Both the position numbers and the translations under genes were made by a program. Positions 17,630-32,988 of a DNA stretch of 34,969 nucleotides are shown here, piece by piece (position 1 is the stretch's first letter; each line of letters opens with the position of its first letter). The notes beneath the pieces are model-generated. The model was not told the DNA's origin. It saw only the letters and a list, made by a program, of their open reading frames with translations, and did no database searches. This DNA comes from Candidatus Altiarchaeota archaeon (GTDB lineage: Archaea; Altiarchaeota; Altiarchaeia; IMC4; SCGC-AAA252-I15): positions 1 to 34,969 of the forward strand of contig JBDRLL010000008.1 of the NCBI GenBank assembly GCA_043813075.1, given 5' to 3'.

Positions 17630-18985
17630 TTAATCCTTCGGCAAGTGTATGGCGGAGTTGATGGCGTCCAAGACCGCTTCAAGTATTATCTCAGGGTATG
17701 TCGGGTGCGCGCGCACGGTTTCTGCGAATTCCTCTGCAGTCATCCTCCTATCCACCGCCAGGGCGGCTTCAGCTATCATGTCTGACGCGTTCTCGCCGAC
17801 AAGATGAACCCCTATGATGCGGTGGTTACTGTCAATCAATACTTTCGCGAATCCCTGGCGTGCATCCTCGCACCTGGCTTTACCGGAAGCGGCGTAGGGG
17901 AACATGCCTTCACCATGCTCTCCCGCCTCATGTGACGTGACACCCACTCTCGCCATCTCCGGTATGCTGAACACACACCATGGTATTGCATCATAAGTCA
18001 TCTCACTGTCGATGCCCATCATGTTCTCGGCAGCCACCAACCCCTCATTGGATGCGACGTGGGCGAGCTGCAGTCCTCCCGCAACATCTCCTATGGCGTA
18101 TATGCCAGTTATGTTGGTCCTCATACGGGAGTCAACCTTGATTCCCCTGTTATCGTATTCTATACCCAACGCGTCAAGCTCTTGCCTATTTATTGACGGT
18201 ATTCTTCCTACTGCCACGAGCACCTTATCTGCATTGACTTCTATGCTCCCGTCAGGAGTCTCTACATACGCCTTCCCTGAGGTCGAGTCTGTCCTGGAGA
18301 CCTTGGAGTTAACGTGTATCTTCGCGTTCTTGCTTAGGTTCTTCATGACTTCCCCTGAAATTTCAGGGTCTTCCATGGGGAGGAGCCGTTCTTCCATCTC
18401 GACTATCGTTACTTCAGAGCCTAGGCGGCTGAATATGGTTGCATATTCAACACCTACAACTCCCCCGCCTATTATCAAAAGCCTGGCTGGCAGCTCCTCA
18501 AGGCCTAGTATCCCCTCGCTGGATAATATGAATTCCCCGTCATACTCAATGCCTGGTATTCCTGCGGGCACGGATCCGGTGGCTATTATGATGTTGTCAC
18601 ATTCAAGCCGCCTGCCGTCAGCCTCCACGGTTTTCACGTCCAATATCCTTGCATTGCCATATACCACCTCTATGCTGTTGCTTTCAAGCAGCTTCTCTAT
18701 GCCCTTAACAGTAGTGCTCACGACACGGTTCTTCCATTTCAGGAGCGCGTTGAAGTCTATCCCGCTCTTCTCCACGAGAACGCCCCTCTTCGCCAGCGAA
18801 TCCATCCTCCCCATGTCCCTGGCCACAGACCAGAGCGTCTTAGTCGGGATACACCCTCTGTTTGTGCAGACGCCCCCTAGGGCATCTCTTTCCACAAGAA
18901 TGGCCTTACCGCCAAGCTGGGCTGTCCTTATCGCCGCAGTGTAGCCTCCAGGTCCCCCGCCTATTATCACGGCATCGTACTTCAT
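17630..18985 (-). CDS. lpdA: Dihydrolipoamide dehydrogenase (GCS L protein / E3)
   Basis: GGGPGGY, GGVCTNRGCIPTK redox disulfide, GGGVVGVE and HPTYPE. ATG 18985 overlaps the lplA stop (ATGA). Confidence 0.95.
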   Translation of the reverse strand: MKYDAVIIGGGPGGYTAAIRTAQLGGKAILVERDALGGVCTNRGCIPTKTLWSVARDMGRMDSLAKRGVLVEKSGIDFNALLKWKNRVVSTTVKGIEKLLESNSIEVVYGNARILDVKTVEADGRRLECDNIIIATGSVPAGIPGIEYDGEFILSSEGILGLEELPARLLIIGGGVVGVEYATIFSRLGSEVTIVEMEERLLPMEDPEISGEVMKNLSKNAKIHVNSKVSRTDSTSGKAYVETPDGSIEVNADKVLVAVGRIPSINRQELDALGIEYDNRGIKVDSRMRTNITGIYAIGDVAGGLQLAHVASNEGLVAAENMMGIDSEMTYDAIPWCVFSIPEMARVGVTSHEAGEHGEGMFPYAASGKARCEDARQGFAKVLIDSNHRIIGVHLVGENASDMIAEAALAVDRRMTAEEFAETVRAHPTYPEIILEAVLDAINSAIHLPKD

Positions 18986-19734
18986 CTTTTGTTGTTCCAT
19001 TCCTCACTTGAGTACTTAGTCTTCGCTAGTTCACCGGCTAGTTTCATCTCGCTTTCGCTTAGCTTGCCGGGCTCCAGCTCAAGGTTCATCGCCTGGGCGA
19101 ACCCGTTTACAACTGCGTTTGAAGCCTTATGAAACGACACTTCCCTGCCAAGGCAGTCTTTCACGCTTGTGACGCGTTCCTTCACGTTTTCCACGATCTT
19201 GTCCCTCATCTTCTCTGACGGCACCTTCAGCAGTCTGAACATCCTGTTGACGTCCAGCTTCAATAATATCGTCCCATGCTGCAGCATGCAGTGTTTACGC
19301 CTTGTCTGCGCGTTCCCTGAGATCTTCTTTCCTCCTGTGACTATGTCGTTGAGTGGTGCGAACTCGGATTCGATGCCCAGTGAGTCAAGGCCTCTAGTGA
19401 TTCCCCCGCACACTAGCCTGTATGATTCTAGTATGTCTTCTGGAACTTCTTTTTCCGGTATTATGATGCTGTAAGTCAGCTCCTGGTCGTGGAATACCGC
19501 GCCTCCCCCTGTTATCCTGCGCACGACGTCCACTCCCATGTCGCAGCACGCCGCCAAGTCCACTTCCTCCTGGATGCTCTGGAAGTAGCCGATGCTGACT
19601 GCGGGGGGGCTCCAGCCGTATATCCTGAGGGTTGGCTTGCTTGTGCCTTCTGACACGTGTTCCAGCACTGACTCATCCACACCCATGTTCCAGGATGCCT
19701 TCTGGAATCCTGTCTCAAGCAGCCTGCATTCCAT
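18982..19734 (-). CDS. lplA: Lipoate-protein ligase catalytic subunit (LplA-N/LipM-like)
   Basis: NMGVDE, SIGYFQ, RRITGGGAVFHD, ND, KKISGNAQ and QHGT motifs. Confidence 0.92.
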   Translation of the reverse strand: MECRLLETGFQKASWNMGVDESVLEHVSEGTSKPTLRIYGWSPPAVSIGYFQSIQEEVDLAACCDMGVDVVRRITGGGAVFHDQELTYSIIIPEKEVPEDILESYRLVCGGITRGLDSLGIESEFAPLNDIVTGGKKISGNAQTRRKHCMLQHGTILLKLDVNRMFRLLKVPSEKMRDKIVENVKERVTSVKDCLGREVSFHKASNAVVNGFAQAMNLELEPGKLSESEMKLAGELAKTKYSSEEWNNKR

Positions 19735-20002
19735 CCCACGCCTCGCTTATTGCCTTAGTGATTGATTCCGCGTCTATCCCATAGAGTATCGCCCCTGTCT
19801 CGCTTATCGTTTCCCGTATCCTATCCCCCACGTCTTTCTTGCCGCACCCTTTGATTGCATCCTCAATCCTCTCTATCGCCTCCTCAGGGTGCGCGAAGAA
19901 GTCTCCGTTGATTTCAACGTCCTTTATCTTTTCCCCATCAACGTTTATTCTTATCTTAAGGAGTTTACCGCCAGCCACCTTCAGCGTATGCCTGCCTTCC
20001 AT
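19715..20002 (-). CDS. lplB: Lipoate-protein ligase accessory subunit (stand-alone C-terminal domain)
   Basis: KVAGGKLL and INGDFFAHPEE motifs; overlaps the lplA start. Confidence 0.85.
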   Translation of the reverse strand: MEGRHTLKVAGGKLLKIRINVDGEKIKDVEINGDFFAHPEEAIERIEDAIKGCGKKDVGDRIRETISETGAILYGIDAESITKAISEAWDGMQAA

Positions 20003-20096
20003 CGTGAATGTATTTGTCGCAGAAATAAAAAAACACGGATTCTATAAAAAATAAGATAATATTATACAATACAAATATGTCTTATATAATATAACC

Positions 20097-20714
20097 TCAT
20101 TTTTTTATCAGTTTTTTTGCAATGCCTATGAATTCCCCCAGCGATTCAACCCTCCAGTCGCCGTCAACACCAATGCCAACAGTCTTGCACCCTGCATTCC
20201 TGCCGGCTCCAGTGTCAGCGGTAGTATCCCCAACCATCAGCGCATCGCCCACACCGACTCCGAGAATCTCACACGCCTTCAGTATGATATCCGGCCCAGG
20301 CTTGCCCACAGACACGTCATTACCCCCCAGAACCACATCAAAACGATCATGCAACCCCACCTGTTCGAGCGTCAGAAACATCAAGTCCCTAGGCGTATTA
20401 GTTACGATACCCACCTTCAGGCCCCTGGATTTCAGGTATTCGATGACCTCAATGCTCTCCGGGAACAGCTTAACTTCCGATATGTTCTCAGGGAAAAAGC
20501 GGTCGTAGAACCCAAGCAGCTGTTCTGGAGTGTACATGGGGAAAAACCTCTTGATGTCGTACTCGGTGGACTGCCCGAGCACATCCTCGCAGAAATACTC
20601 GTAGCTTATCTCCTCCCTACCCGCATGCTTCAGCACCATGTTGAACGTCTTATGCCATGCAGGCACTGAATCCACTATGGTGCCGTCCATGTCGAACAAA
20701 ACAGCCTTGAACAT
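20097..20714 (-). CDS. HAD-superfamily phosphatase (phosphoglycolate phosphatase-like)
   Basis: FDMDGT, VTN, KPGP and VGDTTAD motifs. Confidence 0.9.
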   Translation of the reverse strand: MFKAVLFDMDGTIVDSVPAWHKTFNMVLKHAGREEISYEYFCEDVLGQSTEYDIKRFFPMYTPEQLLGFYDRFFPENISEVKLFPESIEVIEYLKSRGLKVGIVTNTPRDLMFLTLEQVGLHDRFDVVLGGNDVSVGKPGPDIILKACEILGVGVGDALMVGDTTADTGAGRNAGCKTVGIGVDGDWRVESLGEFIGIAKKLIKK

Positions 20715-20741
20715 CGTTGAAGAAGATAAAGCGAATACACC

Positions 20742-21578
20742 TTAAAATAGGCTTGCCGCGTGATAACTGGTCCTCGCCAGCGGCTCTGAAATTACGTTAT
20801 CAAACCCCCTTAAAGCAGCCTCCTCACCGTATTGCGTGAACACTTCCGGCCTGACGTACTCAACCACCGGAGCCTGCTTGCTTCCAGGTTGCAGGTACTG
20901 TCCGAGGATCAGGAAATCGCATCCAGCACCCCTCAAGTCGTCCATAGTCCTTAACACATCCTCTTCGCTCTCTCCCAGCCCCAGCATTATGGACGACTTC
21001 GTCTTAACCCCGTCGTTGATGTCCTTAACCTCCCGTAGCGTCTGGAGGCTCCTCTCGTAGGAGGCCCTAACGTCCCTCAAATCCTGCAGCCTCTTCACGA
21101 CCTCGATGTTGTGGGCTACGACTTCGGGCCCGGAACCGACGACAGTCGCCAGCTCATCGCCAACATAGTCTGGTATGAGCACCTCAACCCTCGCGCCCAC
21201 ATCCTTTACAGCCTTCACGCATTCCGCGTAGTGTCTCGACCCGCTGTCAGGCAGGTCGTCCCTGTCCACTGAAGTCAGGACTACGTAGGCCAAACCCAGC
21301 TTCCTGACCGCGTCAGCGAGCCTGGCAGGCTCCTCATCGTCCAAAGGCATCCCGTTCTTACCGCTCTTGACAGCGCAGAACCCGCAGTTCCTAGTGCACA
21401 CGTCTCCCAGTATGAGGAACGTAGCGGTCCCGGAACCCCAGCACTCCGCCTTATTAGGGCACAAGGCCTCATCACAGACCGTGTGCAGGCTGTTCTCACT
21501 AAGCACCTGCCTGACCTTTCCGAAGGCACTTCCTCCCGGCACCTTAACTCTCAGCCAGTCAGGCTTCCGAGACACCAT
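20742..21578 (-). CDS. lipA: Lipoyl synthase
   Basis: RKPDWL, CDEALCPNKAEC (CX4CX5C), CTRNCGFC, TSVDRDDL, GQYLQP and C-terminal RTSY; ATG 21578 preferred. Confidence 0.96.
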   Translation of the reverse strand: MVSRKPDWLRVKVPGGSAFGKVRQVLSENSLHTVCDEALCPNKAECWGSGTATFLILGDVCTRNCGFCAVKSGKNGMPLDDEEPARLADAVRKLGLAYVVLTSVDRDDLPDSGSRHYAECVKAVKDVGARVEVLIPDYVGDELATVVGSGPEVVAHNIEVVKRLQDLRDVRASYERSLQTLREVKDINDGVKTKSSIMLGLGESEEDVLRTMDDLRGAGCDFLILGQYLQPGSKQAPVVEYVRPEVFTQYGEEAALRGFDNVISEPLARTSYHAASLF

Positions 21579-21655
21579 AACATAATACTCAGAAGGACAC
21601 GATAATAAAACCAATGTATTAAATGGTCAGGCATGCGACAAATTCTTGACAGGGT

Positions 21656-22549
21656 TTAGTCCTTCCCCTTCAGGTACTTGAATATCTCAGATTCTGAGGA
21701 TGTTATAATCACATTGTCCTCCTTGGGTATTATCTTTCCGTAAGCCTCCATCGTCCTCATGAAACGGTAGAACTCAGGGTCCACGTCATATATCTGCCCG
21801 TATATCTTCCCTGCCTCAGCGTCTGCCCCGCCTTTTATTACCGAGGCGTTATGGTATGCCTCAGACAGTATCACCCGCCTAAGCCTGTCTGTCTCAGCGT
21901 TTATCTTGAGCGCCTCCTCCTCTCCCTCGGAACGGTATTTGTTGGCCATCATCTCCCTCTCAGACATCATCCTCTCAAACACGTGTGCCAGGTTCTGGTA
22001 TGGGAAATTTATGCGGCGGATTTTCACATCCTTTATCTCCATCCCGTAGTCATCCAGCTTGCTTCTTGAGGACTCCACAACCTTCTTGTTTATATCGTCC
22101 CTCTTGATGCTTATGATGTCCTTGAAATCGTATAACCCCAGTTCTCTCCTGATCTCTGAGTATACTATGTCGCTTATCCTGTAGTTAGCCCCCTTCTCGT
22201 TGCCGACAGTCTGTATGTACTTCAAAGGGTCCTTTATCCTCCATATGACGTAGTAGTCTATCACAAGGTTTTTCTTGTCGCTTGACAGCACTTCCGACTC
22301 GGATGACTCGCTTGTGATCAGCCTCGCATCTAACCTCTGGATGTTCTGTATGGGCTCTGGCAGCTTAACATACAATCCCGGATCAGTTATGATCCTTACG
22401 GGCTTCCCGAATTGCGTCACCACAACGTTCTCAGTCTCGTCGACTATGAAGAACACCATGCTTAGCATGAACGCTAGGACTATGGCTGAGAGTACTATCG
22501 CCGACTTGCCCGTCCATTTCCTCTTGTTTTTCGCGTTCATATTTATCAT
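21656..22549 (-). CDS. hflC: HflC-type SPFH protein
   Basis: Single N-terminal TM; VVTQFGKP, DKKNLVID, WRIKDP, RMMSER, RSEGEE and DPEFYRFMRTMEAY motifs; ATGA overlap with the upstream gene. Confidence 0.92.
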   Translation of the reverse strand: MINMNAKNKRKWTGKSAIVLSAIVLAFMLSMVFFIVDETENVVVTQFGKPVRIITDPGLYVKLPEPIQNIQRLDARLITSESSESEVLSSDKKNLVIDYYVIWRIKDPLKYIQTVGNEKGANYRISDIVYSEIRRELGLYDFKDIISIKRDDINKKVVESSRSKLDDYGMEIKDVKIRRINFPYQNLAHVFERMMSEREMMANKYRSEGEEEALKINAETDRLRRVILSEAYHNASVIKGGADAEAGKIYGQIYDVDPEFYRFMRTMEAYGKIIPKEDNVIITSSESEIFKYLKGKD

Positions 22550-24399
22550 AATAGTAGTGGGCCCTTCTCGATCCTGCTCATGAGTTCGTCCTCGGTCAAT
22601 TCCGTGTCTGCGGTGCTCCAGTACTCTTCCTCCTCACTCATATCATATCCATTGGGGTCGTACATGGGGTTCACGGCATCTGGTTCAGCGTCTGTCTTCT
22701 GTTCCTTGTATGCCAGCTGGTTCAGGAGTATCAGCTTCGAGTAGTCTAGGCTGCCTCCTCCGTTGTCTGGCGCGTCTATTATGAACAGCTTTGTCTGTGG
22801 GAGTGTATTCTCAAGGGTCTCTATGTATATCCTTGTTCTGGTTGTGTCCATGTGTTTCTTGTACTCCTCATACACCTTCATGAACCTCTCGACATCCCCC
22901 ATGGCAGTGTTAATCCTCTGCGTCCTGTAGGCTTGGGCGTCCTGCACGATTTTCTCGGCATTGCCTCTGGCTTTAGGCAGCACGTCGTTCTGGTATGCCC
23001 TGGCGTCGTTTATTATCCTGTTCTTGTCTTCCCTGGCGCTTGCCACATCCTTGAATGATGCGGCTACTTCGGACGGCGGGTGGACGTCCTGTAGCTGGAC
23101 CGCTAGTATGTCCAGTCCTGCCCCATAGGCGTCGAGGGTCTCCTGCGCTATGGACTCGACGTCGGATTGTATCATCATCTTCCCTCCAGTCAACGCCTCG
23201 TCTATACTCTTCCTGCCTATGACCTCCCTGGTCGCAGTCTCCACAGCATCCCGTATAACCCTGTGGGGTTCCCTGGTGTTGAAGAGGTATTCCGCGGAAT
23301 CCCTTATCCTGTATTGCACTATCATGTTCACGTCAACAATGTTCTCGTCGCCAGTCACCATCATGGACTCGTCACTCACCTTCGTGTAGCTGTCTGTGGT
23401 GTGTACGCTCTCCCAGAACTCCGGTTCAAAAGAGTCGGAGTACGGTGTCTTCTCCAGCCTGAAGCCTAACTCAAGCCTGTTCACCTGCGTGACCTTGGTC
23501 TTGATTATGGCCTCCACAGGCCAGGGAAGATGGTAGTGCAGTCCTGGCTCCATTATCTCTCCAGTATGCACGCCGAACCTCTTCACCACACCCTCTTCAT
23601 CGGACTCCACAACGAATATGCCTGAAGCCAGGTATACGACTATCAAGGCCACTATCGTGTATTTCCAGAGGTTCTTAAGCCTCTTGTAGTACTTCCTTAT
23701 GTCAACAGCCATCCTGGCATGGCCTACCTGCTCGATGTTGTTCATTTCCGCGGACTCCATGTCCTGGTATAGCCCCTTTAGGAATCTTCTAGCTGACTTT
23801 GACAATATGTCAACGCCCACTTTTGCTATCATTATGGCTATCAGCACTCCAGCTATCTTGTTCAGTCCTATGCCCACAAGGGAGCCGAGGAGCGAGATAA
23901 GAACCGCCCCTGACGAGTACACGTCCATATATGAGTCGTATCCGTCTGCAACAAGGGCGGGTGAATTGGTCTTATTGCCTATGTGTATCTTGTATTTGCT
24001 CATGAAGTATGATGCGCCGAGGCTTATCAGAGTCCCGACTATCGCGAGTGGGAAGTTTGGCACGATGTTGTCGAACAGTAGCTTTGGTTCAAGGGCTCTC
24101 TTGAATACTTCATAGGCCCCGAAGAGTATGAAGAAGGATATTAGTATCGCCGCCAGGTTCTCCACCTGGTGCACTAGCTTGAATTGTTCCTTGGATTCTA
24201 TGCGCCCTATCCGTATGCTCACGTATGCGAGAACTGATGTGAGCGAGTCGACCAGGGAGTGCGCGGCATCCAGGAACAGGAGGCTGGTGTTGGACATGTA
24301 GCCGAACATCGCCTTGTTTATCGCGAGGAAAACGCACACAGCGAACGAAATCAGCGCAGTCTGCTCCTTAACGGTCTGGTTATTGCCTTCAGCTTCCAT
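22546..24399 (-). CDS. hflK: Fusion of CDF (cation efflux) transmembrane domain and HflK-type SPFH protein
   Basis: aa 1-~208: six TMs with DAAHSLVD, ENLAA, SPALVADG, DVYSS (CDF). aa ~245-570: TM, GVVKRFG, PGLHYHLPWP, TGDENIV, LQDVHPP, PKARG, TRTRIYIETLE (HflK). One uninterrupted frame. Confidence 0.9.
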   Translation of the reverse strand: MEAEGNNQTVKEQTALISFAVCVFLAINKAMFGYMSNTSLLFLDAAHSLVDSLTSVLAYVSIRIGRIESKEQFKLVHQVENLAAILISFFILFGAYEVFKRALEPKLLFDNIVPNFPLAIVGTLISLGASYFMSKYKIHIGNKTNSPALVADGYDSYMDVYSSGAVLISLLGSLVGIGLNKIAGVLIAIMIAKVGVDILSKSARRFLKGLYQDMESAEMNNIEQVGHARMAVDIRKYYKRLKNLWKYTIVALIVVYLASGIFVVESDEEGVVKRFGVHTGEIMEPGLHYHLPWPVEAIIKTKVTQVNRLELGFRLEKTPYSDSFEPEFWESVHTTDSYTKVSDESMMVTGDENIVDVNMIVQYRIRDSAEYLFNTREPHRVIRDAVETATREVIGRKSIDEALTGGKMMIQSDVESIAQETLDAYGAGLDILAVQLQDVHPPSEVAASFKDVASAREDKNRIINDARAYQNDVLPKARGNAEKIVQDAQAYRTQRINTAMGDVERFMKVYEEYKKHMDTTRTRIYIETLENTLPQTKLFIIDAPDNGGGSLDYSKLILLNQLAYKEQKTDAEPDAVNPMYDPNGYDMSEEEEYWSTADTELTEDELMSRIEKGPLLL

Positions 24400-24427
24400 G
24401 TTACCCTATCTCTATTTAATGTCCCCC

Positions 24428-24435
24428 TATATAAA
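24428..24435 (-). promoter_or_regulatory. TATA box for the CDF-hflK/hflC operon
   Basis: TTTATATA on the minus strand, ending 28 nt upstream of ATG 24399. Confidence 0.65.
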
Positions 24436-24485
24436 TATAGTGCGCATATGGGTCTTATTCCAATTATGCACATCCAGATAACACT

Positions 24486-24507
24486 TAAATGCCCTTATGG
24501 GCATTTA
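24486..24507. promoter_or_regulatory. Perfect inverted repeat, candidate operator
   Basis: TAAATGCCC-ttat-GGGCATTTA with 9-bp arms; the right arm overlaps the TATA box at 24504-24511. Confidence 0.6.
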
Positions 24508-24511
24508 TATA
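24504..24511 (+). promoter_or_regulatory. TATA box for the DUF134 operon (probably leaderless)
   Basis: TTTATATA ending 22 nt upstream of ATG 24534; no RBS visible. Confidence 0.65.
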
Positions 24512-24533
24512 CTGTTGCCGTCTATTATTTATC

Positions 24534-24953
24534 ATGGTTGACCGTGGACGGCCTAAGTGCATGCGTAATGTCGAGGGAAAACCTGATGTTGACTACTTCA
24601 AGCCTAGGGGCATACCGCTAACGGAACTGGATTCAGTTGAACTGAAGGTCGAGGAGCTTGAGGCTATGCGCCTCGTAGACTTCGAGGGTATGGAGCAGGA
24701 AGATGCTGCCAGACAAATGAAGATTTCACGACGCACCATGTCCAGGGAGCTCAAGTCTGGCCGCAGGAAAATAACGGAAGCACTTCTGACCGGCAAGGCG
24801 ATAGAGATAAAGGGCGGCAGTTTCCTGGCTAAGGGTGAGGCCTTGTTCAAGTGTGCTGCTGACGGCCACCGTTGGAAAGAAAAGTCCACGAATAAGCCAA
24901 AATGCCCTGAATGTGGTGGAAATAAGGTGAAGAGGATTAAGAATGCTGGATGA
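24534..24953 (+). CDS. DUF134 family HTH protein with C-terminal zinc ribbon
   Basis: [43 protein letters not shown]; then C..DGHRW...CPECGG. ATG 24534 preferred over 24489. Confidence 0.92.
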
Positions 24954-25071
24954 TGAGAAAGAGGATGAGCGATCGCCGCCCTACAGGGATGGTTCAGGCG
25001 GCGGTAAGAGGGCTAACCGAGGTAAATACTGCGGTGGTGAGGGAGAGGAAACCGGAAGATACAGAGACTAA
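24943..25071 (+). CDS. 42-aa Gly/Arg-rich mini-protein (not in the ORF track)
   Basis: [42 protein letters not shown]; GAGGA upstream; fills the gap between DUF134 and the next gene. Confidence 0.55.
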
Positions 25072-25083
25072 ACTGAGGTGACT

Positions 25084-25284
25084 ATGATGCCTGGAAGGGA
25101 TGGTGGAGGCCCTGCAATGGGTCCTGGACAAGGTGGGAGAGGAAGAATGCATGGTGGGGGCCCAGGGGGTCCGACAAAGTGTGTATGCCCTAAATGTGGT
25201 TCACTTCAACCGCATGTCAGAGGCACCCCATGCATCCAGACAAAGTGCGCTAAATGCGGTTCTATGATGGTCAGGGGTGATTGA
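25084..25284 (+). CDS. Small Gly-rich, Cys-rich protein (DUF5320-like N-terminus plus zinc-ribbon-like C-terminus)
   Basis: MPGRDGGGP...CVCPKCG...H.RGTPC...CAKCG..M; GAGGTGA RBS at 25075-25081 (start 25084 or 25087). Confidence 0.8.
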
Positions 25285-25592
25285 TACCTAAAATGCATTC
25301 CTATGCTGAGATAGATGCGGCTCGCAGAACCCTTTGTCTGGGAGAGTATGCGACACTTAAGGAAGTTAAGGATGCATTCAGGCGTCTAGTCAAAAAACAC
25401 CATCCCGACAAGGGTGCCGTCGATGATGCTGGGCGGATAAACGATGTGATAAATGCTTATGGCGTTTTGATTGCGTATATCGGGAAATACACGTATTCAT
25501 TCAAGTCAAATGATGTCCTGCGTCAGAACCCTGATGAGTTGATGAAGACGATATATGGGGGTGACTGGATGTGGGGCATATCCGGTAAATAA
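25281..25592 (+). CDS. Small J-domain (DnaJ-like) protein
   Basis: [17 protein letters not shown] with HPD motif; INAYGVL. Confidence 0.85.
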
Positions 25593-25611
25593 TCGTGGAG
25601 GATGATCTAAG

Positions 25612-26040
25612 TTGAATATCGCAGTTGCAACGACAAAAGGAGGGCTAGATGATAGTGTGTCCCCCATCTTCGGTAGATGCATCAAGATAACGCTAGTAGA
25701 ATGCGAGGGTGGTGAGATATCAAATGTTGTGATAACCGATAATCCCGGTTTCATGGAGGCTGGTGGCGCAGGAATCAAGGCAGCGCAATATGTCTCTGGC
25801 TTGAATGCGGAAGCAGTAATCGCGGGTAATTTCGGGCCAAACGCATCAACCGTGCTTTCACAGTCCGGAGTCAATATGCTGCTGTCACAGGGTACAGTTA
25901 AAGACTCTGTTGAGAAATACATTAACGGCGAACTAACCAATGTATCAGGCCCCACGGTTGAAAGCCATCATGGTATGGGGGCGCGTGGGTTCGGAGGTCA
26001 TGGAAGACGCCATGGCAATACTAACATAAGAGGTGATTGA
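25612..26040 (+). CDS. NifB/NifX (FeMo-cofactor-binding fold) family protein
   Basis: IAVAT, SPIFGRC, GGAGIKAAQ and GNFGPNA motifs; Gly/His-rich tail. Confidence 0.9.
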   Translation: MNIAVATTKGGLDDSVSPIFGRCIKITLVECEGGEISNVVITDNPGFMEAGGAGIKAAQYVSGLNAEAVIAGNFGPNASTVLSQSGVNMLLSQGTVKDSVEKYINGELTNVSGPTVESHHGMGARGFGGHGRRHGNTNIRGD

Positions 26041-26440
26041 CTTGCTGATAGCATTTCCAACTGACGGCGACAAGGGATGGGACGAGGAATTAAGCCAGCA
26101 TTTTGGCCGTTCTACAAGGTACACGCTAGTTAATGATGAAGACGATTCCATAACAGTCATAGAGAATACGAGCCAACACATGGGTGGTATGGGAATGCCG
26201 CCTGAAATACTCTCAGAAGCGGGTGTTAATGTCATCATATGCCGTGGCCTTGGCCGCAGGGCCATAGAAATGTTCAGTGAGTTTAACATACAGGTATACT
26301 GTGACGCATCTGGTACTGTTGGGCAGGTATTCAAACAATGGAAGGCTGGAGGACTTTTGCCAGCATCTGAGGATAACTCATGCACTAGACACGATTTCCG
26401 GTCTGAACATCATGGTTCAGGTAATTGCGGAAGGCATTAG
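26033..26440 (+). CDS. NifB/NifX family protein with His/Cys tail
   Basis: SQHFGRS and ICRGLGRRA motifs; tail CTRHDFRSEHHGSGNCGRH. Start may be TTG 26042. Confidence 0.9.
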   Translation: MIDLLIAFPTDGDKGWDEELSQHFGRSTRYTLVNDEDDSITVIENTSQHMGGMGMPPEILSEAGVNVIICRGLGRRAIEMFSEFNIQVYCDASGTVGQVFKQWKAGGLLPASEDNSCTRHDFRSEHHGSGNCGRH

Positions 26441-26441
26441 C

Positions 26442-27275
26442 ATGATTATTTCTATTGCTAGCGGAAAGGGCGGCACAGGCAAGACGACCCTCGCTGTTAA
26501 TCTAGCGCTTTCCATGGGGGATGTGCATCTGGTTGACTGTGACGTTGAGGAGCCTAACTGTCACATATTCCTCAAGCCCGAGACATTCGAGGCAAGGGAT
26601 GTCTGCGTTAAAGTGCCTGACATAAACCATGACTTATGCGATTACTGCGGTAAATGCTCTGAATTCTGCCAGTATAATGCTCTCGCAGTGGCAAATAGGA
26701 CAATGCTTGAATTCCCAGAGCTATGCCATAGTTGCGGTGGATGCAGTATCGTATGCCCTAAAAACGCGATTAGTGAAAGGGAAATGCGGATAGGTGAAGT
26801 AAGGTCATGTAAAATAGGGGGATTAGACTTCTCGTATGGTATACTTGACATAGGTAAGGCCATGGCATCGCCAATAATACGTTCTCTAAAGTCGGCTATT
26901 GACCACAATAGGGACGTTATACTAGACTCACCGCCAGGTACTTCTTGCGCGGTCATAGAGTCTGTTAAGGGCAGTGACTACTGTGTGCTTGTCACCGAAT
27001 CCACACCATTCGGTCTTAATGACATGAAGCTTGCCATTGAGATGCTCGAAAGCATTGGTGTACCCTATGGCGTTGCAATAAATCGTTATGGTCTAGGGGA
27101 TTCAAGTGTCGATGATTACTGCAGTGAACGCGACATACCTGTGTTGGTTAGACTCCCTTATGACCGTAGGATAGCTGAATTGTATTCAAAAGGCGTGCCT
27201 TTTATAAGCGAATTATCAAAATATAGTGTCATATTTAACGGTATGATAGATTCCATTAGAGAGGTCGTTGGATGA
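26442..27275 (+). CDS. MinD/ParA-superfamily P-loop ATPase with inserted 2x[4Fe-4S] ferredoxin
   Basis: SGKGGTGKTT, DCDVEEPN, CDYCGKCSEFC, CHSCGGCSIVCP and DSPPGTSC; ATG 26442 follows the NifX stop. Confidence 0.92.
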   Translation: MIISIASGKGGTGKTTLAVNLALSMGDVHLVDCDVEEPNCHIFLKPETFEARDVCVKVPDINHDLCDYCGKCSEFCQYNALAVANRTMLEFPELCHSCGGCSIVCPKNAISEREMRIGEVRSCKIGGLDFSYGILDIGKAMASPIIRSLKSAIDHNRDVILDSPPGTSCAVIESVKGSDYCVLVTESTPFGLNDMKLAIEMLESIGVPYGVAINRYGLGDSSVDDYCSERDIPVLVRLPYDRRIAELYSKGVPFISELSKYSVIFNGMIDSIREVVG

Positions 27276-28564
27276 AGAATTCACTACTAATAAGCTTAAT
27301 AACCCTACTCGTCATTTTACCCTCCGTTAGTGGGCAGAATGACTCCAACACAACCCATGAGGTCACTGCCTACGTGTTCTGGGCTTACGGGTGCCCTCAT
27401 TGTGCCGCGGAGAAGCCTTTCATGGAGGCATTGGATAATGAGTATCCTTGGCTTACCGTGAAGTACTATGAGATATCCTCTGACTACAAGAACGCTGAGC
27501 TATACTCCAACATGGTGAAGGCGTGCGGCCAGAATCCTCTGGGCGTGCCTGCGACAGTCATCGATGACGAAGTCTTCTTCGGGTATGACGACAACATTCG
27601 CATGGGCGCGAGGATACATGACCGCCTACTCAAGTGCCATCAAGAGGGGTGTATTGACGCTATCCTCCTTGTTAACGGTTCCGACGCGTGTGTGGACGGC
27701 ACTCAGAACGACACTTCAGTTGACATACCCCTAATCGGGAAGGTGGACGCAACCCAGATGTCGCTGCCCCTATTCACTATAGTGATCGGCGGGCTGGACG
27801 GCTTCAACCCATGCGCGTTCTTCGTGCTATTCTTCCTCCTAAGCCTCCTAATCCACGCCAGATCCAGGATACGCATGTTCATGATCGGCGGCATATTCGT
27901 GTTCTTCTCAGGATTCATCTACTTCCTCTTCATGGCCGCCTGGCTGAACTTCTTCCTATTCATCGGCCAGATCAAGGCCATCACGCTAATAGCAGGTATT
28001 ATCGCCCTCATCGTCGCTTTGTTGAACATAAAAGACTTCTTCTGGTTCAAGAAGGGGGTCTCCCTGTCCATACCCGAGTCAGCTAAGCCAAAGCTTTTCA
28101 GTAGGATGAGGGACCTCGTTAAGGCAAGCGAGTTGCCATCAATGGTTTTGGGGACTGCCATACTGGCAATAGCCGCAAACACGTATGAGCTGTTGTGCAC
28201 TGCCGGCTTCCCAATGGTCTACACAAGGGTTCTGACCCTCAACAACCTTTCGACCACCGGATACTACACGTATCTCGCGCTATACAACATCGTCTACGTG
28301 ATGCCCCTTTTCACCATCGTGATGATGTTCACCATAACCCTCGGTTCAAGAAAGCTAAAGGAAGAGGAGGGCAGGATACTTAAGCTGCTGTCGGGCTTCA
28401 TGATGCTTAGCCTGGGTGTGATTCTCGTTGTTAAGCCAGGCCTGCTAAACAATGTTGTTGTTGCTGTTGGGGTGCTGGCTTTTTCAGTGTGTGCTACTGC
28501 AGTAGTTAAGTCTCTTATGCTATCCAGGGGAAAAGATGAAACAGCTGACGGTAATCAGTGGTAA
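27272..28564 (+). CDS. Exported thioredoxin domain fused to a CcdA/DsbD-like TM redox domain
   Basis: Signal peptide, GCPHC, GVPA cis-Pro loop; then about 7 TMs with the DGFNPCAF and ELLCTAG cysteine pair. Confidence 0.8.
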   Translation: MKNSLLISLITLLVILPSVSGQNDSNTTHEVTAYVFWAYGCPHCAAEKPFMEALDNEYPWLTVKYYEISSDYKNAELYSNMVKACGQNPLGVPATVIDDEVFFGYDDNIRMGARIHDRLLKCHQEGCIDAILLVNGSDACVDGTQNDTSVDIPLIGKVDATQMSLPLFTIVIGGLDGFNPCAFFVLFFLLSLLIHARSRIRMFMIGGIFVFFSGFIYFLFMAAWLNFFLFIGQIKAITLIAGIIALIVALLNIKDFFWFKKGVSLSIPESAKPKLFSRMRDLVKASELPSMVLGTAILAIAANTYELLCTAGFPMVYTRVLTLNNLSTTGYYTYLALYNIVYVMPLFTIVMMFTITLGSRKLKEEEGRILKLLSGFMMLSLGVILVVKPGLLNNVVVAVGVLAFSVCATAVVKSLMLSRGKDETADGNQW

Positions 28565-29390
28565 GGGCGGCACAGGCAAGACTAGTCTTGTTGCCGCTTT
28601 TGCCGGGTTGTCCGGGAACAAGGTTATCGCAGACTGTGATGTTGACGCAGCAGACCTTCATCTACTCCTAAATCCTACGGTGGTTGAAGAGCAGGATTTC
28701 ATGGCATTGAAGACTGCTGTGATAGATCAGTCAAAGTGCATTAAATGCGGGGAATGCATGGAAAAGTGCAGGTTCGATGCGATTGTAGACTACTCTGTGG
28801 ATGATGTGTCATGTGAGGGGTGTGGGGTATGCCGGCTTATATGCCCTCAGAATGCTGTTGAATTGGTGGACAAGGTGTCTGGAAAGGCTTTCATATCAAA
28901 AACCCGTCTAGGGCCTCTATGCCATGCAAGACTGTTCCCTGGAGAGGAGGCTTCAGGCAAGCTCGTAACCCATGTGAGGAATAATGCGAGAAAGGTTGCT
29001 GTGGAAAACAACATGGACTTGATTCTAATCGACGGTTCCCCTGGGACAGGCTGTCCAGTGATAGCATCCATTGGCGGTGTGGACATGGCCCTAATAGTGA
29101 CTGAGCCCACGCTCTCAGGATTGCACGACATGGAACGCATACTCGCCGTAGCCAGGCACTTCAACGTACGGCCTGCCGTCTGCGTGAACAAGTACGATTT
29201 GAACGAGGAGATTACAAATGATATCGAGGAATACTGTGGCGGTAAAAACATATCGTTCGTTGGTAAAATACCATACGATGATGCATTCACTGACGCAATG
29301 GTAGAATGCATGACGATCATAGAATACTCTGATAATGGTGTCGCAGATGATGTCAGGGGCATATGGAGTGAGGTCGAGAAAATATTGTGA
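28536..29390 (+). CDS. Second MinD/ParA-superfamily P-loop ATPase with inserted ferredoxin
   Basis: SGKGGTGKTS, DCDVDAADL, CIKCGECMEKC, CEGCGVCRLICP, SGKLV and DGSPGTGCPVIAS. Confidence 0.92.
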   Translation: MKQLTVISGKGGTGKTSLVAAFAGLSGNKVIADCDVDAADLHLLLNPTVVEEQDFMALKTAVIDQSKCIKCGECMEKCRFDAIVDYSVDDVSCEGCGVCRLICPQNAVELVDKVSGKAFISKTRLGPLCHARLFPGEEASGKLVTHVRNNARKVAVENNMDLILIDGSPGTGCPVIASIGGVDMALIVTEPTLSGLHDMERILAVARHFNVRPAVCVNKYDLNEEITNDIEEYCGGKNISFVGKIPYDDAFTDAMVECMTIIEYSDNGVADDVRGIWSEVEKIL

Positions 29391-29830
29391 CGAAAACCAG
29401 TTTCAATCATATAGGCGTCATACACACTCCATTCAAGACACTGGATGGAATACCGATACAGGCATCCAGGTCTGACGCATCAGGGGAGGTTGAAGTATTC
29501 CAGGAATACTCTGAGGGTTTATCAGACATAGAAGGATTCAGCCACATCATTCTCCTATACCACCTGCACAAGTCTGCAGAACGCCTGTTAAAAGTAAAGC
29601 CTTTCCTGGATGACGTCCAACGTGGGGTGTTCTCCACCAGGGCTCCATGGAGGCCAAACCCCATTGGCATATCCACTGTGGAGTTGCTTGGCAGGAAGGA
29701 TAATCTCCTGAAGGTTAATGGTGTTGACGTGTTGGATGGGACACCACTACTCGATATAAAGCCTTATGTCCCTGAATTCGACTGGCGTGAAAACATCAGG
29801 ATAGGATGGCTGGACGGGAAAACAGATTGA
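29387..29830 (+). CDS. tsaA: TrmO/TsaA-like SAM-binding protein (short form)
   Basis: IGVIHTPF, GFSH, GVFSTRAPWRPNPIG and DGTPLLDIKPY motifs. Confidence 0.9.
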   Translation: MTKTSFNHIGVIHTPFKTLDGIPIQASRSDASGEVEVFQEYSEGLSDIEGFSHIILLYHLHKSAERLLKVKPFLDDVQRGVFSTRAPWRPNPIGISTVELLGRKDNLLKVNGVDVLDGTPLLDIKPYVPEFDWRENIRIGWLDGKTD

Positions 29831-31264
29831 TTAATCTCTCCTAATCCACCGTAAATCCGGGTTTCTCGCGGCCTGCGTGTTGTCGAGTCTTTTGACTGGC
29901 GTCGTATGCGGTGCAGTGTTCACCGTCTCCGGGTTGTTCTTGCATTCCTCGCCTATATTCTCCATGACCGTGACGAACTCGTCCAAAGTGGCCTTGCTCT
30001 CCGTCTCCGTCGGCTCTATCATCATTGACTCTTCGACTATGAGCGGGAAGTAGATTGTGGGCGCGTGGACTCCATAGTCCAGCATGCGTTTCGCGATGTC
30101 CAGCGTATGCACCTTGTTTTCATATAGTTGTCTCCTGCCTGACAGCACGAATTCGTGCATGCACGTCCTGTCGAAAGGCAGGTCATACGTTCCCCTAAGC
30201 TTCTTCATAAGGTAATTAGCGTTCAATACCGCATCCTCAGACGACCTCCTTAAGCCGGCACCCCCCAAAGCCTTTATGTACGTGTAGGCCCTCACCAGCA
30301 CCCCGAAGTTGCCGTAGTAAGCCCTCACTCTCCCAATGCTCTTCGGGATGTCGTAGTTAAAGTAGTAGCCTTTCCTGTTCTTTTCCACAGTCGGCTTCGG
30401 CAGATAATCATTAAGCGCATTCTTCACGCCGACTGGCCCGCTTCCTGGGCCGCCGCCGCCGTGGGGTGTTGAGAAAGTCTTGTGCAGGTTCACGTGCACG
30501 ACATCGAAGTTCATGTCGCCTGGTCTCGCCTTCCCGAGTATGGCGTTAAGGTTCGCCCCGTCATAGTAAACCAGCCCCCCGTTCTCGTGCACTATCCTTG
30601 TTATCTCGCATATGTTCCTGTCAAACAATCCCAGCGTGTTGGGGTTGGTGAGCATTAGGCCTGCAGTATCATCGTCCATCAGCTCTTTCAGGGATTCCAC
30701 GTCCACCTCTCCTTCACTGTTGGAGGCGACTTGCACTATCGCATACCCGCACATGGCCGCACTCGCAGGGTTGGTGCCGTGGGCTGAGTCGGGGATGAGC
30801 ATCTTACCCCTTTCCTCTCCCTTATCCTTTAGGTATGCTTTGATGATCATTATGCCAGTCATCTCGCCGTGGGCTCCCGCAGCAGGCTGTAAAGTGAACC
30901 TGTCCATTCCCGTTATCTCGCAGAGGTCTTTCGACAGCTCGTACATGATTTGAAGCGCTCCCTGAGCATCCTCCACTCTTGTGTAAGGGTGTATTCCACT
31001 GAATCCCGGTAGGCTTGCCGTGAAATCATTTATCTTCGGGTTATACTTCATCGTGCAGGAGCCTAGCGGGTAGAATCCAGTGTCCACGCCGTAATTCCTC
31101 TTCGCGAGCGCGGTGTAGTGCCTCACCACGTCCGACTCCGATAGTTCAGGCAGACCAACCTTACCCCTCCTCATGGACTCAGGTATTACAACTGATTCCG
31201 ACACCTGTTCAGGTGGCATCCACCCCACCCTACCCTCCACGCTCTTCTCGAAAAGCAGCTTCAC
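29831..31264 (-). CDS. gcvPB: Glycine dehydrogenase (decarboxylating) subunit 2
   Basis: [46 protein letters not shown] (PLP Lys) and IEPTETE. Confidence 0.97.
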
Positions 31265-32544
31265 ACAGACACCTCCCCCACGAACGCGTCAATCTCCTCC
31301 CTAGAGTCCACTTCAGTGCAGCAGAACAGCCTGCAACCATCCAAGTCAGGATAGAACACGCTCACGTCAAAACCAGCTTCAACACTTTCCGGACACTTCA
31401 ATAGGAACTCATTGTAGAACGGCTGGTCGTACACCCTCTCGAATCCGTCCAACTCACACAGCTTCATGGAAAGGTATGATGCGTTCTTGTGCGAGTTCAA
31501 GGCCACGTGCCTGAAGCCTTCAGGACCAAGCAGGGCGAGATATGATGAAGCCGCTATGGCATTCAATGATTCTGAAGTGCAGATGTTTGATGTCGCCTTC
31601 TCCCGCCTGATGTGCTGTTCCCTAGCCTGCAGCGTCAGCACGAACCCCCGCTCGCCGTCTCGGTCTGTCGTTGCTCCCACAAGCCTGCCAGGCATCTTCC
31701 GGACATACTCCATCCTGGTTGCCATGAAACCGAAGTGCGGCCCACCGAACGACATTGGGTTGCCCAGGCATTGGCCTTCACCGACGACTATGTCTGATCT
31801 GGCTGGCGGCTTTACTATGCCCAGTGACGTGGCTTCTATGACGCATGATATTAGCAGTGATTTCTTGTCGTGTACTATGTCTGTGATGGCGTCAACATCC
31901 TCCAGGCATCCGAAGAAGTTCGGGTTCTGGATTATGACGCACGCGGTATCATCTGTGACATGCTCCTCCAGGTTATCCGCGACCACTCCTCCCTGAGTCT
32001 CGACGGTTTCCAGGCGGATGCCGGCCGTATTCAAGTATGTCTCAAGCACCTGCATGTATTCCGGATGGATGTTCTCAGGCGCTATGACAGTGTTCTTATT
32101 GTTTATCCTGTGTGCCATCAGGCAGGCTTCAGCCAGTGCGGTGGAGCCGTCGTACATGCTGGCGTTCGACACTTCCATGCCAGTGAGCTCGCACATCATC
32201 GTCTGGAACTCATAGAGTGCCTGCAGCACTCCCTGGCTTACCTCCGCCTGGTATGGAGTGTACGCCGTATATATCTCTGGGAGTCCTGTCACATGCCTCA
32301 CTGCTGAGGGCACGAAATGGTTGTATACCCCAGCGCCAGTGAACATGGATTGCGTATTGTTCTTAGAGGCGAGTTTCACAATCCTTTCATGGACTTCCAC
32401 CTCACTGTAACCTCCCTCAACATCAAGGTCCTTCTTCAGCAGGATCTTATCGTTTACATCAGCGTATAACTCGTCCATGCTATCCACCCCAATGTATTCC
32501 AGCATAGACTTGCGTTCGCTGGGGCTGCTTCCAGTGTAATCCAT
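31261..32544 (-). CDS. gcvPA: Glycine dehydrogenase (decarboxylating) subunit 1
   Basis: [27 protein letters not shown] and [19 protein letters not shown]; ATG 32544 preferred. Confidence 0.96.
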
Positions 32545-32554
32545 GTTAGCGTCT

Positions 32555-32941
32555 CTACCTGCTTTCAGCAACGTGTTTAGAGTACCCTTCAGAGTCCATC
32601 AGGTCGTCGAGTTCTCCAGAATCCCTCATCCTTATCTTGAACATCCACCCTTCCTCGTAGGGTGACGAGGTTATGAGCTCAGGCTTGTCTTCAAGCTGGC
32701 TGTTGACTTCCACCACCTCGCCGCTTACCGGCGCATAGATGTCTGAAACGGATTTAACAGACTCTACGACCGCAACGCTCTTCGACTTCTCGACGTTATC
32801 CCCCTTGCCTGGGAGCTCAACGTAGACTATGTCTCCGAGCGCGTTCTGCGCGTAGTCTGTTATCCCAACAACGCACACGTCACCCTCCTTCTTAACCCAT
32901 TCATGCTCTTTAGTATACTTTAATCCTGTAGGCAGATTCAT
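32555..32941 (-). CDS. gcvH: Glycine cleavage system H protein
   Basis: YTKEHEW, GITDYAQ, LGDIVYVELP, VESVKSVSD (lipoyl Lys); GAGGTGA RBS. Confidence 0.97.
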   Translation of the reverse strand: MNLPTGLKYTKEHEWVKKEGDVCVVGITDYAQNALGDIVYVELPGKGDNVEKSKSVAVVESVKSVSDIYAPVSGEVVEVNSQLEDKPELITSSPYEEGWMFKIRMRDSGELDDLMDSEGYSKHVAESR

Positions 32942-32988
32942 CTCTTCACCTCACAAAATATTTGTAATAATCTCTAAAAAGCAGTGGT

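Follow-up and report, generated by a model that had tools for sequence, protein, structure and literature searches.

Relation to the orange protein and IssA systems

The closest described relatives of the system considered here are the orange protein (ORP) complex of Desulfovibrio and the IssA protein of Pyrococcus furiosus. According to published work, the ORP complex is 'putatively involved in cell division' (PMC6345978, PMC8359166); Orp3 and Orp4 possess a MinD-like amphipathic helix, MrpORP is polar and is an Fe-S carrier, and Orp8 homologues bind a [S2MoS2CuS2MoS2] cluster (PMC6345978). IssA is presented as a thioferrate iron-sulfur storage protein that forms nanoparticles, combining an IPR003731 domain with a 70-residue tail that is cationic and rich in glycine and aromatic residues, and Vaccaro et al. 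put MTH1175 in the IssA clade (PMC5524996). The present analysis deals with an 8.2-kb divergon (positions 21656-29830) in a stretch of 34,969 bp, referred to as the window, of contig JBDRLL010000008.1 of a Candidatus Altiarchaeota archaeon (GenBank assembly GCA_043813075.1). As judged from its domains, the right arm of this divergon is an archaeal, DUF134-headed version of an ORP/IssA-type cluster; its left arm is a member of an unstudied family of fusions between a cation diffusion facilitator (CDF) and HflK; and the two arms are linked by gene neighbourhood. To our knowledge, studies of the ORP complex in Desulfovibrio go back to 2011 and have not settled its function, and DUF134 and DUF5320 are large families without a known role. 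A search of one limited collection of papers found no work combining HflK, 'cation diffusion facilitator' and 'fusion', and none pairing DUF134 with NifX.

The divergon shares with the ORP locus of Desulfovibrio vulgaris Hildenborough (Orp3/Orp4/Orp5/Orp8/Orp9 = MrpORP; OrpR) a pair of MinD-type ATPases with two [4Fe-4S] motifs each and an ORP/MTH1175-type NifX-like protein as counterpart of Orp8, and both occur in anaerobes. A further likeness is the divergent two-operon layout with an apparently dedicated regulator, whose regulon is the locus itself (PMC6345978, PMC8359166). Unlike the D. vulgaris locus, the window has no sigma-54 promoters and no PAS-domain activator OrpR, in place of which a DUF134 gene and a palindrome at an archaeal TATA box are present; moreover, a J protein, Gly/Arg-rich mini-proteins, a thioredoxin (Trx)-membrane protein and TrmO are added, and the divergent arm consists of a transporter-scaffold pair instead of more orp genes. 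Similarly, the first of the two NifX-like proteins (NifX1) resembles IssA in its IPR003731/PF02579 domain, in having MTH1175 as its closest solved relative, and in its cationic, glycine-rich, disordered C-terminal tail. However, this tail counts 33 residues versus 70, with His in place of aromatics. Also unlike IssA, the Gly/Arg-rich part additionally occurs in the window as separate DUF5320-like small genes; it is fused to NifX in locus L205.

Gene content of the divergon

The host genome (1.80 Mb, 41 contigs) is 89% complete. Comparisons covered 61 genomes of the phylum for the survey of the fusion, 41 related genomes for the DUF134 and transporter counts, and a set of related loci of 408,621 bp. 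Open reading frame (ORF) calls and searches with Pfam and NCBIfam retrieved all twelve predicted genes and the spacer at the places given in an earlier note that had been made from the sequence alone, namely CDF-HflK and HflC leftward and a tightly packed run of ten genes rightward, and the domain assignments of that note turned out to be correct. Its statement that nitrogenase genes are lacking in the window was borne out as well, as no nitrogenase family was found with Pfam among the 42 ORFs scanned. Within the right arm, neighbouring genes overlap by 4-29 bases or are separated by gaps of 1-19 bases, the order being DUF134, 42-amino acid (aa) ORF, 68-aa ORF, J, NifX1, NifX2, ATPase, Trx-membrane (430 aa), ATPase and TrmO. 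The features of the divergon are as follows.

21656-22549, minus strand: HflC (SPFH/Band 7), partner of the fused HflK (PF01145, E 3.9e-31; TIGR01932, 208 bits, cut-off 134)
22546-24399, minus strand: CDF-HflK fusion, 617 aa (PF01545, residues 16-205; PF01145, residues 263-468)
24428-24435, minus strand: TATA-like box TTTATATA, putative leftward promoter, 29-36 bases upstream of the CDF-HflK start codon
24487-24506, no strand: candidate operator palindrome AAATGCCC-TTAT-GGGCATTT, running directly into the rightward TATA box
24504-24511, plus strand: TATA-like box TTTATATA, putative rightward promoter, 23-30 bases upstream of the DUF134 ATG
24534-24953, plus strand: DUF134 protein (PF02001, E 8.6e-28, 97 bits, cut-off 27)
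24943-25071, plus strand: 42-aa Gly/Arg-rich mini-protein with one Cys (frame conserved at the same place in genomes G022, 62% identity, and G005, 56%)
25078-25284, plus strand: 68-aa protein with a Gly/Arg-rich, DUF5320-like N-terminal part and CxxC...CxxC zinc-ribbon motifs
25281-25592, plus strand: J-domain-only co-chaperone with HPD motif (PF00226, 31 bits, cut-off 27.8)
25612-26040, plus strand: NifX1, MTH1175/ORP/IssA type (PF02579)
26033-26440, plus strand: NifX2, TM1290 type, with a Cys/His-rich end (PF02579; solved relatives 1o13, E 8.6e-16, and 1t3v)
26442-27275, plus strand: MinD/ParA-type P-loop ATPase with two [4Fe-4S] ferredoxin motifs (PF01656, PF10609, PF00037)
27272-28564, plus strand: Trx-membrane protein, 430 aa, with a thioredoxin/glutaredoxin-like domain and a multi-helix membrane domain
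28536-29390, plus strand: second MinD/ParA-type ATPase with two [4Fe-4S] motifs (PF00037, PF01656, PF10609)
29387-29830, plus strand: TrmO-family protein, its start overlapping the ATPase stop (TIGR00104, 148 bits, cut-off 93)

Genes of the right arm

The assignment of the right arm to the ORP/IssA type follows from three properties. Firstly, it encodes paired MinD-Fer4 ATPases, which are 30% identical to each other. Secondly, NifX1 matches the solved structures 1eo1 (MTH1175; E 1.5e-15) and 2wfb (ORP of Desulfovibrio gigas; E 2e-8), and its 33-aa C-terminal tail is cationic and Gly-rich (9 Gly, 4 Arg and 4 His; pI 11.5). Thirdly, its ATPases are 44-50% identical to those of loci L158, L160, L201 and L205, which in L158 and L160 lie beside Mrp::NifX proteins that pass the NCBIfam equivalog for MrpORP (487 and 496 bits; cut-off 450); for the first ATPase of the window, the identity to such neighbours of MrpORP amounts to 45-47%. 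In 11 related loci, an Mrp without a NifX domain was found, scoring 364 bits versus the MrpORP cut-off of 450. The earlier note had regarded DUF134, NifB/NifX and the paired ferredoxin-ATPases as a core that recurs in anaerobes without an established function. This core is identifiable as the ORP cluster studied in Desulfovibrio (PMC6345978, PMC8359166), related to IssA (PMC5524996), neither of which the note mentions.

Among the remaining right-arm genes, both small ORFs are, on the evidence of frames conserved at the same position in relatives, real genes. The 42-aa protein had no family match in Pfam. The 68-aa protein, with 14 Gly among its first 33 residues (pI 11.7) and weak zinc-ribbon matches, has its frame conserved in 12 further loci (tblastn), and a true DUF5320 protein occupies the same place in G022. 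A homologue of the J protein is present in 12 of 32 DUF134-bearing loci, the window included, and the host genome contains DnaK (C10:137245-139032).

DUF134 and its candidate operator

The spacer between the arms (24400-24533) measures 134 bp if DUF134 starts at ATG 24534, where both the Pfam match and the relatives begin. The back-to-back TATA boxes that the earlier note had placed in it were confirmed as two TTTATATA boxes, one per arm; this string occurs three times in the window (0.86 expected), two of the three being situated in the spacer, each facing its own arm. The string GCCCWWWWGGGCA was found nowhere else in the window (0.03 expected). The core GCCC-N4-GGGC has 23 sites in the host genome, and at this one only is a TATA box found alongside.

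The 41 related genomes yielded 33 DUF134 genes in 24 of them, and the upstream regions of 29 were examined, leaving out two genes of L128 plus those of L142 and L143 (cut by contig ends). GCCC-N4-GGGC was present within 150 bases upstream of DUF134 in 16 of the 29, mostly in the form TTGCCC-(A/T)4-GGGCATTTATA, the string GGGCATTTATA being conserved across loci. Four other regions had a TGAAT...ATTCA palindrome and three an ACTCA...TGAGT palindrome; none of these was seen in six. Twenty-two core sites, 21 of them at DUF134 clusters, were counted in the related loci plus the window, about five being predicted from the genome-wide density; 19 of the 21 lie just upstream of DUF134 and two before NifX genes within clusters. 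In a tree of DUF134 proteins, loci with the TGAAT palindrome group in one clade (100/100) and those with ACTCA in another (98/88), so that the operator type follows the DUF134 clade. Because of this co-variation, DUF134 is probably the local cognate DNA-binding regulator. Its sequence gives sub-threshold matches to Sigma70_r4_2 (helix-turn-helix, sigma-70 region 4) and Zn_ribbon_8, and its C-terminus is Cys/His zinc-ribbon-like.

In other DUF134 clades (L137, L138 and L144; L039, L122, L123 and L126), the same promoter position is taken by TACTCA-N2-TGAGTA beside CATTTATATAC, and by ATGAATATATATTCAT. Paired GCCC-N4-GGGC copies, about 45-50 bases apart, precede DUF134 in L036 (5388/5436), L037 (5899/5948), L040 (2578/2623) and L140 (5223); the distal copy, degenerate in L140, abuts the TATA box and the proximal copy lies just before the start codon. 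In genome G001 (L036), such paired palindromes are located in the spacer that separates DUF134 from an oppositely oriented J-protein gene.

The CDF-HflK fusion family

The left-arm proteins have their described counterparts in HflK and HflC of Escherichia coli, which form an SPFH cage around FtsH; both pass the NCBIfam cut-offs for hflK and hflC, the HflK part of the fusion scoring 270 bits with the TIGR01933 equivalog (cut-off 159). Unlike in E. coli HflK, the N-terminal anchor is swapped for a six-helix CDF transporter. The six-helix Cation_efflux membrane domain is complete (PF01545, 102 bits, profile positions 2-196 of 198; TIGR01297, 108 bits, cut-off 82), and one extra membrane helix joins it to HflK. 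Both termini of CDF proteins are cytoplasmic; given the one further membrane helix, the SPFH domain of the fusion would thus lie outside the cell, the same side as in E. coli HflK. SPFH proteins serve as membrane scaffolds.

Like YiiP/FieF and MamB/MamM, the CDF part has the full PF01545 domain, and its best named models in NCBIfam are MamB (98.6 bits, cut-off 350), MamV and MamM, of which MamB and MamM are iron-transporting. Unlike these transporters, it is fused to HflK, falls short of the specific equivalog cut-offs and has no cytoplasmic ZT_dimer domain (PF16916), which Pfam did not find in the fusion at E <= 0.01; this domain is present in five unfused CDFs of the phylum. In an alignment, the H-x3-D positions of transmembrane helix (TM) 2 and the D-x3-D positions of TM5 are kept, these being what we take to be the motif positions.

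Fusions of this kind are not confined to the window. Among the best 120 database matches to the 617-aa protein, 73 carry both a CDF and a Band_7 domain; seven of these are archaeal (50-59% identity), and the rest (30-40%) are, where named, bacterial and labelled just 'HflK'. In the phylum, the fusion occurs in four of the 61 genomes, all of one family. A scan of metagenomes with an alignment of CDF parts gave 68 loci, in 53 of which HflK visibly follows the CDF part; in 12 of the other 15, the contig stops less than 300 bases past the match. A scan of reference genomes with the whole fusion had plain bacterial HflK as its best 80 loci, 40-51% identical to the HflK part, and is therefore uninformative on the frequency of the fusion among reference genomes. 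HflC comes after the fusion gene in G001, G010 and G020, and usually also in the metagenome contigs that reach far enough, most of which carry a second HflK gene too. Bacterial fusion operons thus have this second HflK as a third gene, whereas the archaeal ones lack it.

An independent origin of the archaeal and bacterial fusions was considered and dropped, as a single clade holding all 27 fusions is compatible with the approximately unbiased test (p 0.106). In a quick tree of HflK domains, the archaeal fusions group with unfused bacterial HflK (Shimodaira-Hasegawa-like approximate likelihood-ratio test, SH-aLRT, 90), the unfused rows having been picked as best matches to the window.

Two subgroups have features of their own. 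A bacterial CDF-HflK subfamily of 511-512 aa (alignment rows P0163-P0228) shows an altered presumed metal site, with HSVQG in TM2 and HCRIH in TM5, from which it may transport a different ion, or none; its genes are often preceded by sigma-54 activator genes (L170-L172, L178, L180 and L204). The archaeal fusions have in common a C-terminal extension, acidic and variable, with a conserved P-(T/L)-(F/L/I)-(L/W) motif at its end; this extension is absent from the bacterial fusions.

Linkage of the two arms and recruitment of metal transporters

The gene-neighbourhood check proposed in the earlier note was carried out, and, contrary to the refuting condition given there, namely that the arms never adjoin in other genomes, they are neighbours elsewhere as well. 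In all four fusion-bearing genomes of the phylum, right-arm genes adjoin CDF-HflK, and this in four different layouts. In the window, CDF-HflK/HflC is divergent from the DUF134 arm. In G020, DUF134, CDF-HflK and HflC follow each other on one strand, as do CDF-HflK, HflC, a 197-aa gene, DUF134, J, NifX and NifX in G010. In G001, which belongs to the same genus as the host, CDF-HflK is divergent from a Trx-membrane gene of which the product is 62% identical to that of the window, the remaining cluster genes being on another contig. Metagenome contigs were counted if they extended at least 4.2 kb upstream of CDF-HflK; in four of these 21, the genes ATPase, ATPase, MrpORP, FeoA, FeoB, CDF-HflK, HflC and HflK lie on one strand. 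A fifth, shorter contig (L155) has FeoB directly before CDF-HflK. FeoAB is specific for ferrous iron.

The bacterial contigs L205 (1777-13636) and L158 (369-9147) illustrate this arrangement at full length, with, on one strand, a PAS sigma-54 activator, a 92-aa gene, NifX::DUF5320, two MinD-Fer4 ATPases and MrpORP, followed by a block of FeoA, FeoB, CDF-HflK, HflC and a second HflK, and with a Big_5 protein next on the other strand. The PAS-domain sigma-54 activator was found in L205 only, which also carries the NifX::DUF5320 fusion.

Metal transporter genes join DUF134 clusters without the fusion too. ZIP genes are located within the clusters of G002, G021, G022 and G035, and FeoB is found directly upstream of that of G012. 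Across the 41 genomes, 10 of 102 ZIP, CDF and FeoB genes lie within 8 kb of DUF134, about one being expected from the share of DNA; by type, these are 5 of about 34 ZIP, 4 of 30 CDF and 1 of 38 FeoB genes. These relatives are not independent of each other, but they differ in layout. In addition, a CDF::NifX fusion is present in G022 and G027, which share a genus; no NifX domain was found in the long CDF frames checked in G004, G014, G018, G026, G036 and G037. The same architecture is displayed by 98 of the best 120 database matches, from archaea and bacteria, with named records from Bathyarchaeota, ANME-1, Methanococcus aeolicus, Nitrospirae and Omnitrophica. In L037 (1636-2922, minus strand) and L012 (534-1763, plus strand), this CDF has a ZT_dimer and a C-terminal NifX-like domain and is encoded inside the DUF134 cluster, where its gene adjoins a ZIP gene (in G022) and an ARMT1-like gene.

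Proposed function and alternative explanations

Taken together, the locus may serve iron or iron-sulfur buffering of the ORP/IssA type combined with the export of a divalent cation by a scaffolded transporter, DUF134 acting as local regulator, an explanation to which we give a somewhat better than even chance of being right. In the corresponding mechanism, for which we infer the identity of the metal, the direction of transport, the DNA binding by DUF134, the protein contacts and the scaffold role, DUF134 would bind GCCC-N4-GGGC at the position of the BRE (transcription factor B recognition element) and TATA box and would thereby control how the right arm, and possibly the left arm, is transcribed. 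Labile iron-sulfur material would be held by the two NifX-like proteins together with the Gly/Arg-rich mini-proteins; the two iron-sulfur ATPases would load or unload it, with DnaK recruited by the J protein as an aid. An HflK/HflC scaffold on the membrane's outer face would hold the CDF domain, which would move a divalent cation out of the cytoplasm, most likely Fe2+ and secondly Zn2+, and the Trx-membrane protein would pass reducing power outward. In favour of iron are FeoAB and MrpORP, the features recalling IssA, and the likeness of the CDF part to MamB/MamM in its score. The earlier note's picture of a locus that combines metal transport, cluster carriers, ATP-driven maturation, chaperone recruitment and transmembrane reductant supply is thus supported in part, by the linkage and the domains, while its functional steps are predictions.

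Several observations weigh against this mechanism. The bacterial exporter module is mostly found by itself: in 17 of the 21 metagenome contigs, no ORP gene was seen. Importers (Feo, ZIP) and an exporter (CDF) both join the clusters, which leaves the direction of the flux unclear, and ZIP and CDF proteins are classically zinc transporters. The CDF part of the fusion remains below the cut-off of every specific NCBIfam CDF equivalog, and its TM5 site, at the presumed motif positions, reads DxxxD in the window versus HxxxD in the bacterial fusions. FtsH is the usual client of HflK/C; unlike the situation in E. coli, its protease domain (PF01434) was not found in the 89%-complete host genome, the control being positive in 10 of 14 reference genomes. 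MrpORP (NF041136), in which an Mrp/NBP35 domain is joined to a NifX-like domain, is absent from the window; in the 89%-complete genome, tblastn with two Mrp queries detected no Mrp and gave a weak match to the first ATPase only. The word 'self-contained' in the earlier note thus goes too far, given also that the Trx-membrane family is far wider and that TrmO is linked in only 3 of 32 loci. Furthermore, an operator shared by both arms in all genomes is ruled out by two relatives: the GCCC palindrome was not found in the CDF-HflK/Trx spacer of G001, and in G010 it is found before DUF134 only, with none before CDF-HflK. Joint regulation of the arms is thus no general feature. Finally, the genomes of relatives are not independent samples.

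As the main alternative, the locus may be devoted to zinc homeostasis, with the zinc ribbon of DUF134 sensing zinc, ZIP importing and CDF exporting it, the Cys-rich mini-proteins and NifX tails acting as buffer, and Fe-S being an ATPase cofactor only. The ZIP genes within four DUF134 clusters would fit such a role, as would the CxxC zinc-ribbon motifs on the 68-aa protein and DUF134, and the CDF of G022 has an HxxxD/HxxxD pattern, which we take to be zinc-type. It is nevertheless unlikely in view of FeoAB between MrpORP and CDF-HflK in four contigs and of FeoB directly before CDF-HflK in L155 and upstream of the G012 cluster. Also, the best named CDF models are those of the iron-transporting MamB and MamM. 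NifX1, moreover, is of the IssA/ORP type, and MrpORP is described as an Fe-S carrier (PMC6345978).

A role in membrane organisation or cell division, with the MinD-like ATPases positioning the complex, HflK/HflC forming a microdomain and the metals being mere cofactors, is decidedly unlikely. The scaffold nature of SPFH proteins agrees with it, and with the archaeal MinD model both ATPases give weak matches of 51-53 bits, far under its cut-off of 202. It would also agree with the putative division role of the ORP complex, the amphipathic helix of Orp3/Orp4 and the polar MrpORP, as reported (PMC6345978). However, the repeated recruitment of ZIP, FeoAB and CDF, the CDF::NifX fusions and the IssA-like tail would all be left unexplained.

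Less probable again is that the arms are unrelated neighbours, a bacterial-type CDF-HflK/HflC cassette having been acquired horizontally by one archaeal family next to an ORP-like operon and reshuffled locally afterwards. This would account for the patchy occurrence of the fusion (4 of 61 genomes, a single family), the 40-51% identity of its HflK part to bacterial HflK, the interruption of a gcvT-H-P/lipA-lplA-lpd gene row by the divergon, the 17 of 21 bacterial cassettes without ORP genes nearby, and the lack of a shared operator in G001. Yet the linkage is kept across four archaeal arrangements, two of them on one strand; the same neighbourhood occurs in a distant bacterial lineage, of which the CDF part is about 33% identical; and unfused CDFs fuse with NifX domains in many phyla. 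Handling of Mo or W-Cu thiometallates, by analogy with the Mo-Cu-sulfide cluster of the D. gigas orange protein and with the CDF removing the partner cation, is very improbable, as NifX1, although matching ORP 2wfb (E 2e-8) and thereby recalling the [S2MoS2CuS2MoS2] cluster that Orp8 homologues bind (PMC6345978), is nearer to MTH1175 (E 1.5e-15), while no molybdate, tungstate or copper transporter was found in the loci examined with the query set used and the linked transporters are Feo, ZIP and CDF.

Returning to iron or iron-sulfur buffering with scaffolded export, the analysis adds to what had been described that the two modules are joined in archaea as well as in bacteria, that a bridge leads to a curated MrpORP with FeoAB, and that, inside a single phylum, operator types vary together with DUF134 clades. 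DUF134 hereby gains a defined candidate operator, the type of which is clade-linked. The repeated coupling of ORP/IssA-type genes to FeoAB, ZIP, CDF and CDF::NifX points to metal or iron-sulfur buffering rather than to cell division, and a transporter permanently joined to HflK in a genome in which no FtsH was found bears on roles of SPFH cages beyond protease regulation. The recurrent pairing in relatives and some bacteria offers a testable clue to the orange protein system of anaerobes. A bolder version, in which CDF-HflK/HflC forms a closed SPFH cage on the outer face of the membrane, Fe2+ is pumped into it by the fused transporters, reductant is supplied by the Trx-membrane protein and ORP/IssA-type iron-sulfur material from the cytoplasm is turned over or deposited in this protein-bounded extracytoplasmic nano-compartment, is considered improbable; if true, anaerobes would possess in it a scaffolded device for the export or mineralisation of iron sulfide, which would give the orange protein system a physiological role.

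Additional genes and genomic setting

The Trx-membrane protein is signal-like at its N-terminus and contains a thioredoxin fold that carries a CPHC motif (AlphaFold model with a mean predicted local distance difference test score, pLDDT, of 81); residues 28-126 alone match solved folds, all thioredoxins, with Z up to 10.6. In an alignment of 46 sequences, C181 (motif NPC) and C309 of the membrane domain are invariant. Like DsbD/CcdA with ResA-type relays, it would thus combine an exported thioredoxin-fold CPHC domain with one invariant Cys per membrane half. Unlike these, its family is unnamed, no Pfam DsbD model matches at E <= 10, and no match to the membrane part came from Foldseek, VIA-align wide or a PDB-sequence profile search, with the whole protein as query. 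The description 'CcdA-like', the weakest point of the earlier note, can serve as a lead: ESM Atlas look-alikes, by language model and fold (score 0.91; TM-scores 0.72-0.76), carry DsbD_TM, SfLAP or DsbD_2, so that the protein is possibly DsbD/CcdA-like, whereas Pfam lends no support to it. The family is not specific to these clusters, as it counts at least 7,945 homologues, the best 120 of which are 47-66% identical across archaea and bacteria.

The Trx-membrane gene of G001 is followed by a frame of more than 695 aa without a family match (L033, 5032-7116, plus strand). For the homologue of this frame in the host genome (C41:4328-6361), the tblastn alignments are numerous and overlap, which points to internal repeats.

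The membership of TrmO in the system is uncertain, a tRNA methyltransferase having no evident role there. A linked TrmO gene is found in the window, in L123 (27-458, beside cluster genes) and in L140 (592-1005, about 2.3 kb away), and a TrmO-family gene ends DUF134/ATPase clusters in three genomes of two families. A 197-aa protein without a Pfam or NCBIfam match is encoded beside cluster genes in three relatives (46-47% identity), namely in L035 (2365-2958, minus strand), L121 (7535-8101) and L143 (2911-3474); the host genome has a copy elsewhere (C36:109048-109635, 40% identity).

The divergon is flanked by a minus-strand gene row (window 17630-21614 and 29831-34098), with gcvT, gcvH, gcvPA and gcvPB on one side and lipA, a HAD hydrolase, lplA in two parts and lpd on the opposite side; the divergon thus appears to have been inserted into a row of glycine-cleavage and lipoate genes. 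An adjoining pair of lipA and hflC is also present in the sister genome G001. About 14 kb from the divergon, the window contains a further iron-transport gene, coding for a VIT1-family protein (vacuolar-type iron/manganese transporter; PF01988, E 1.5e-10; 9799-10386, minus strand).

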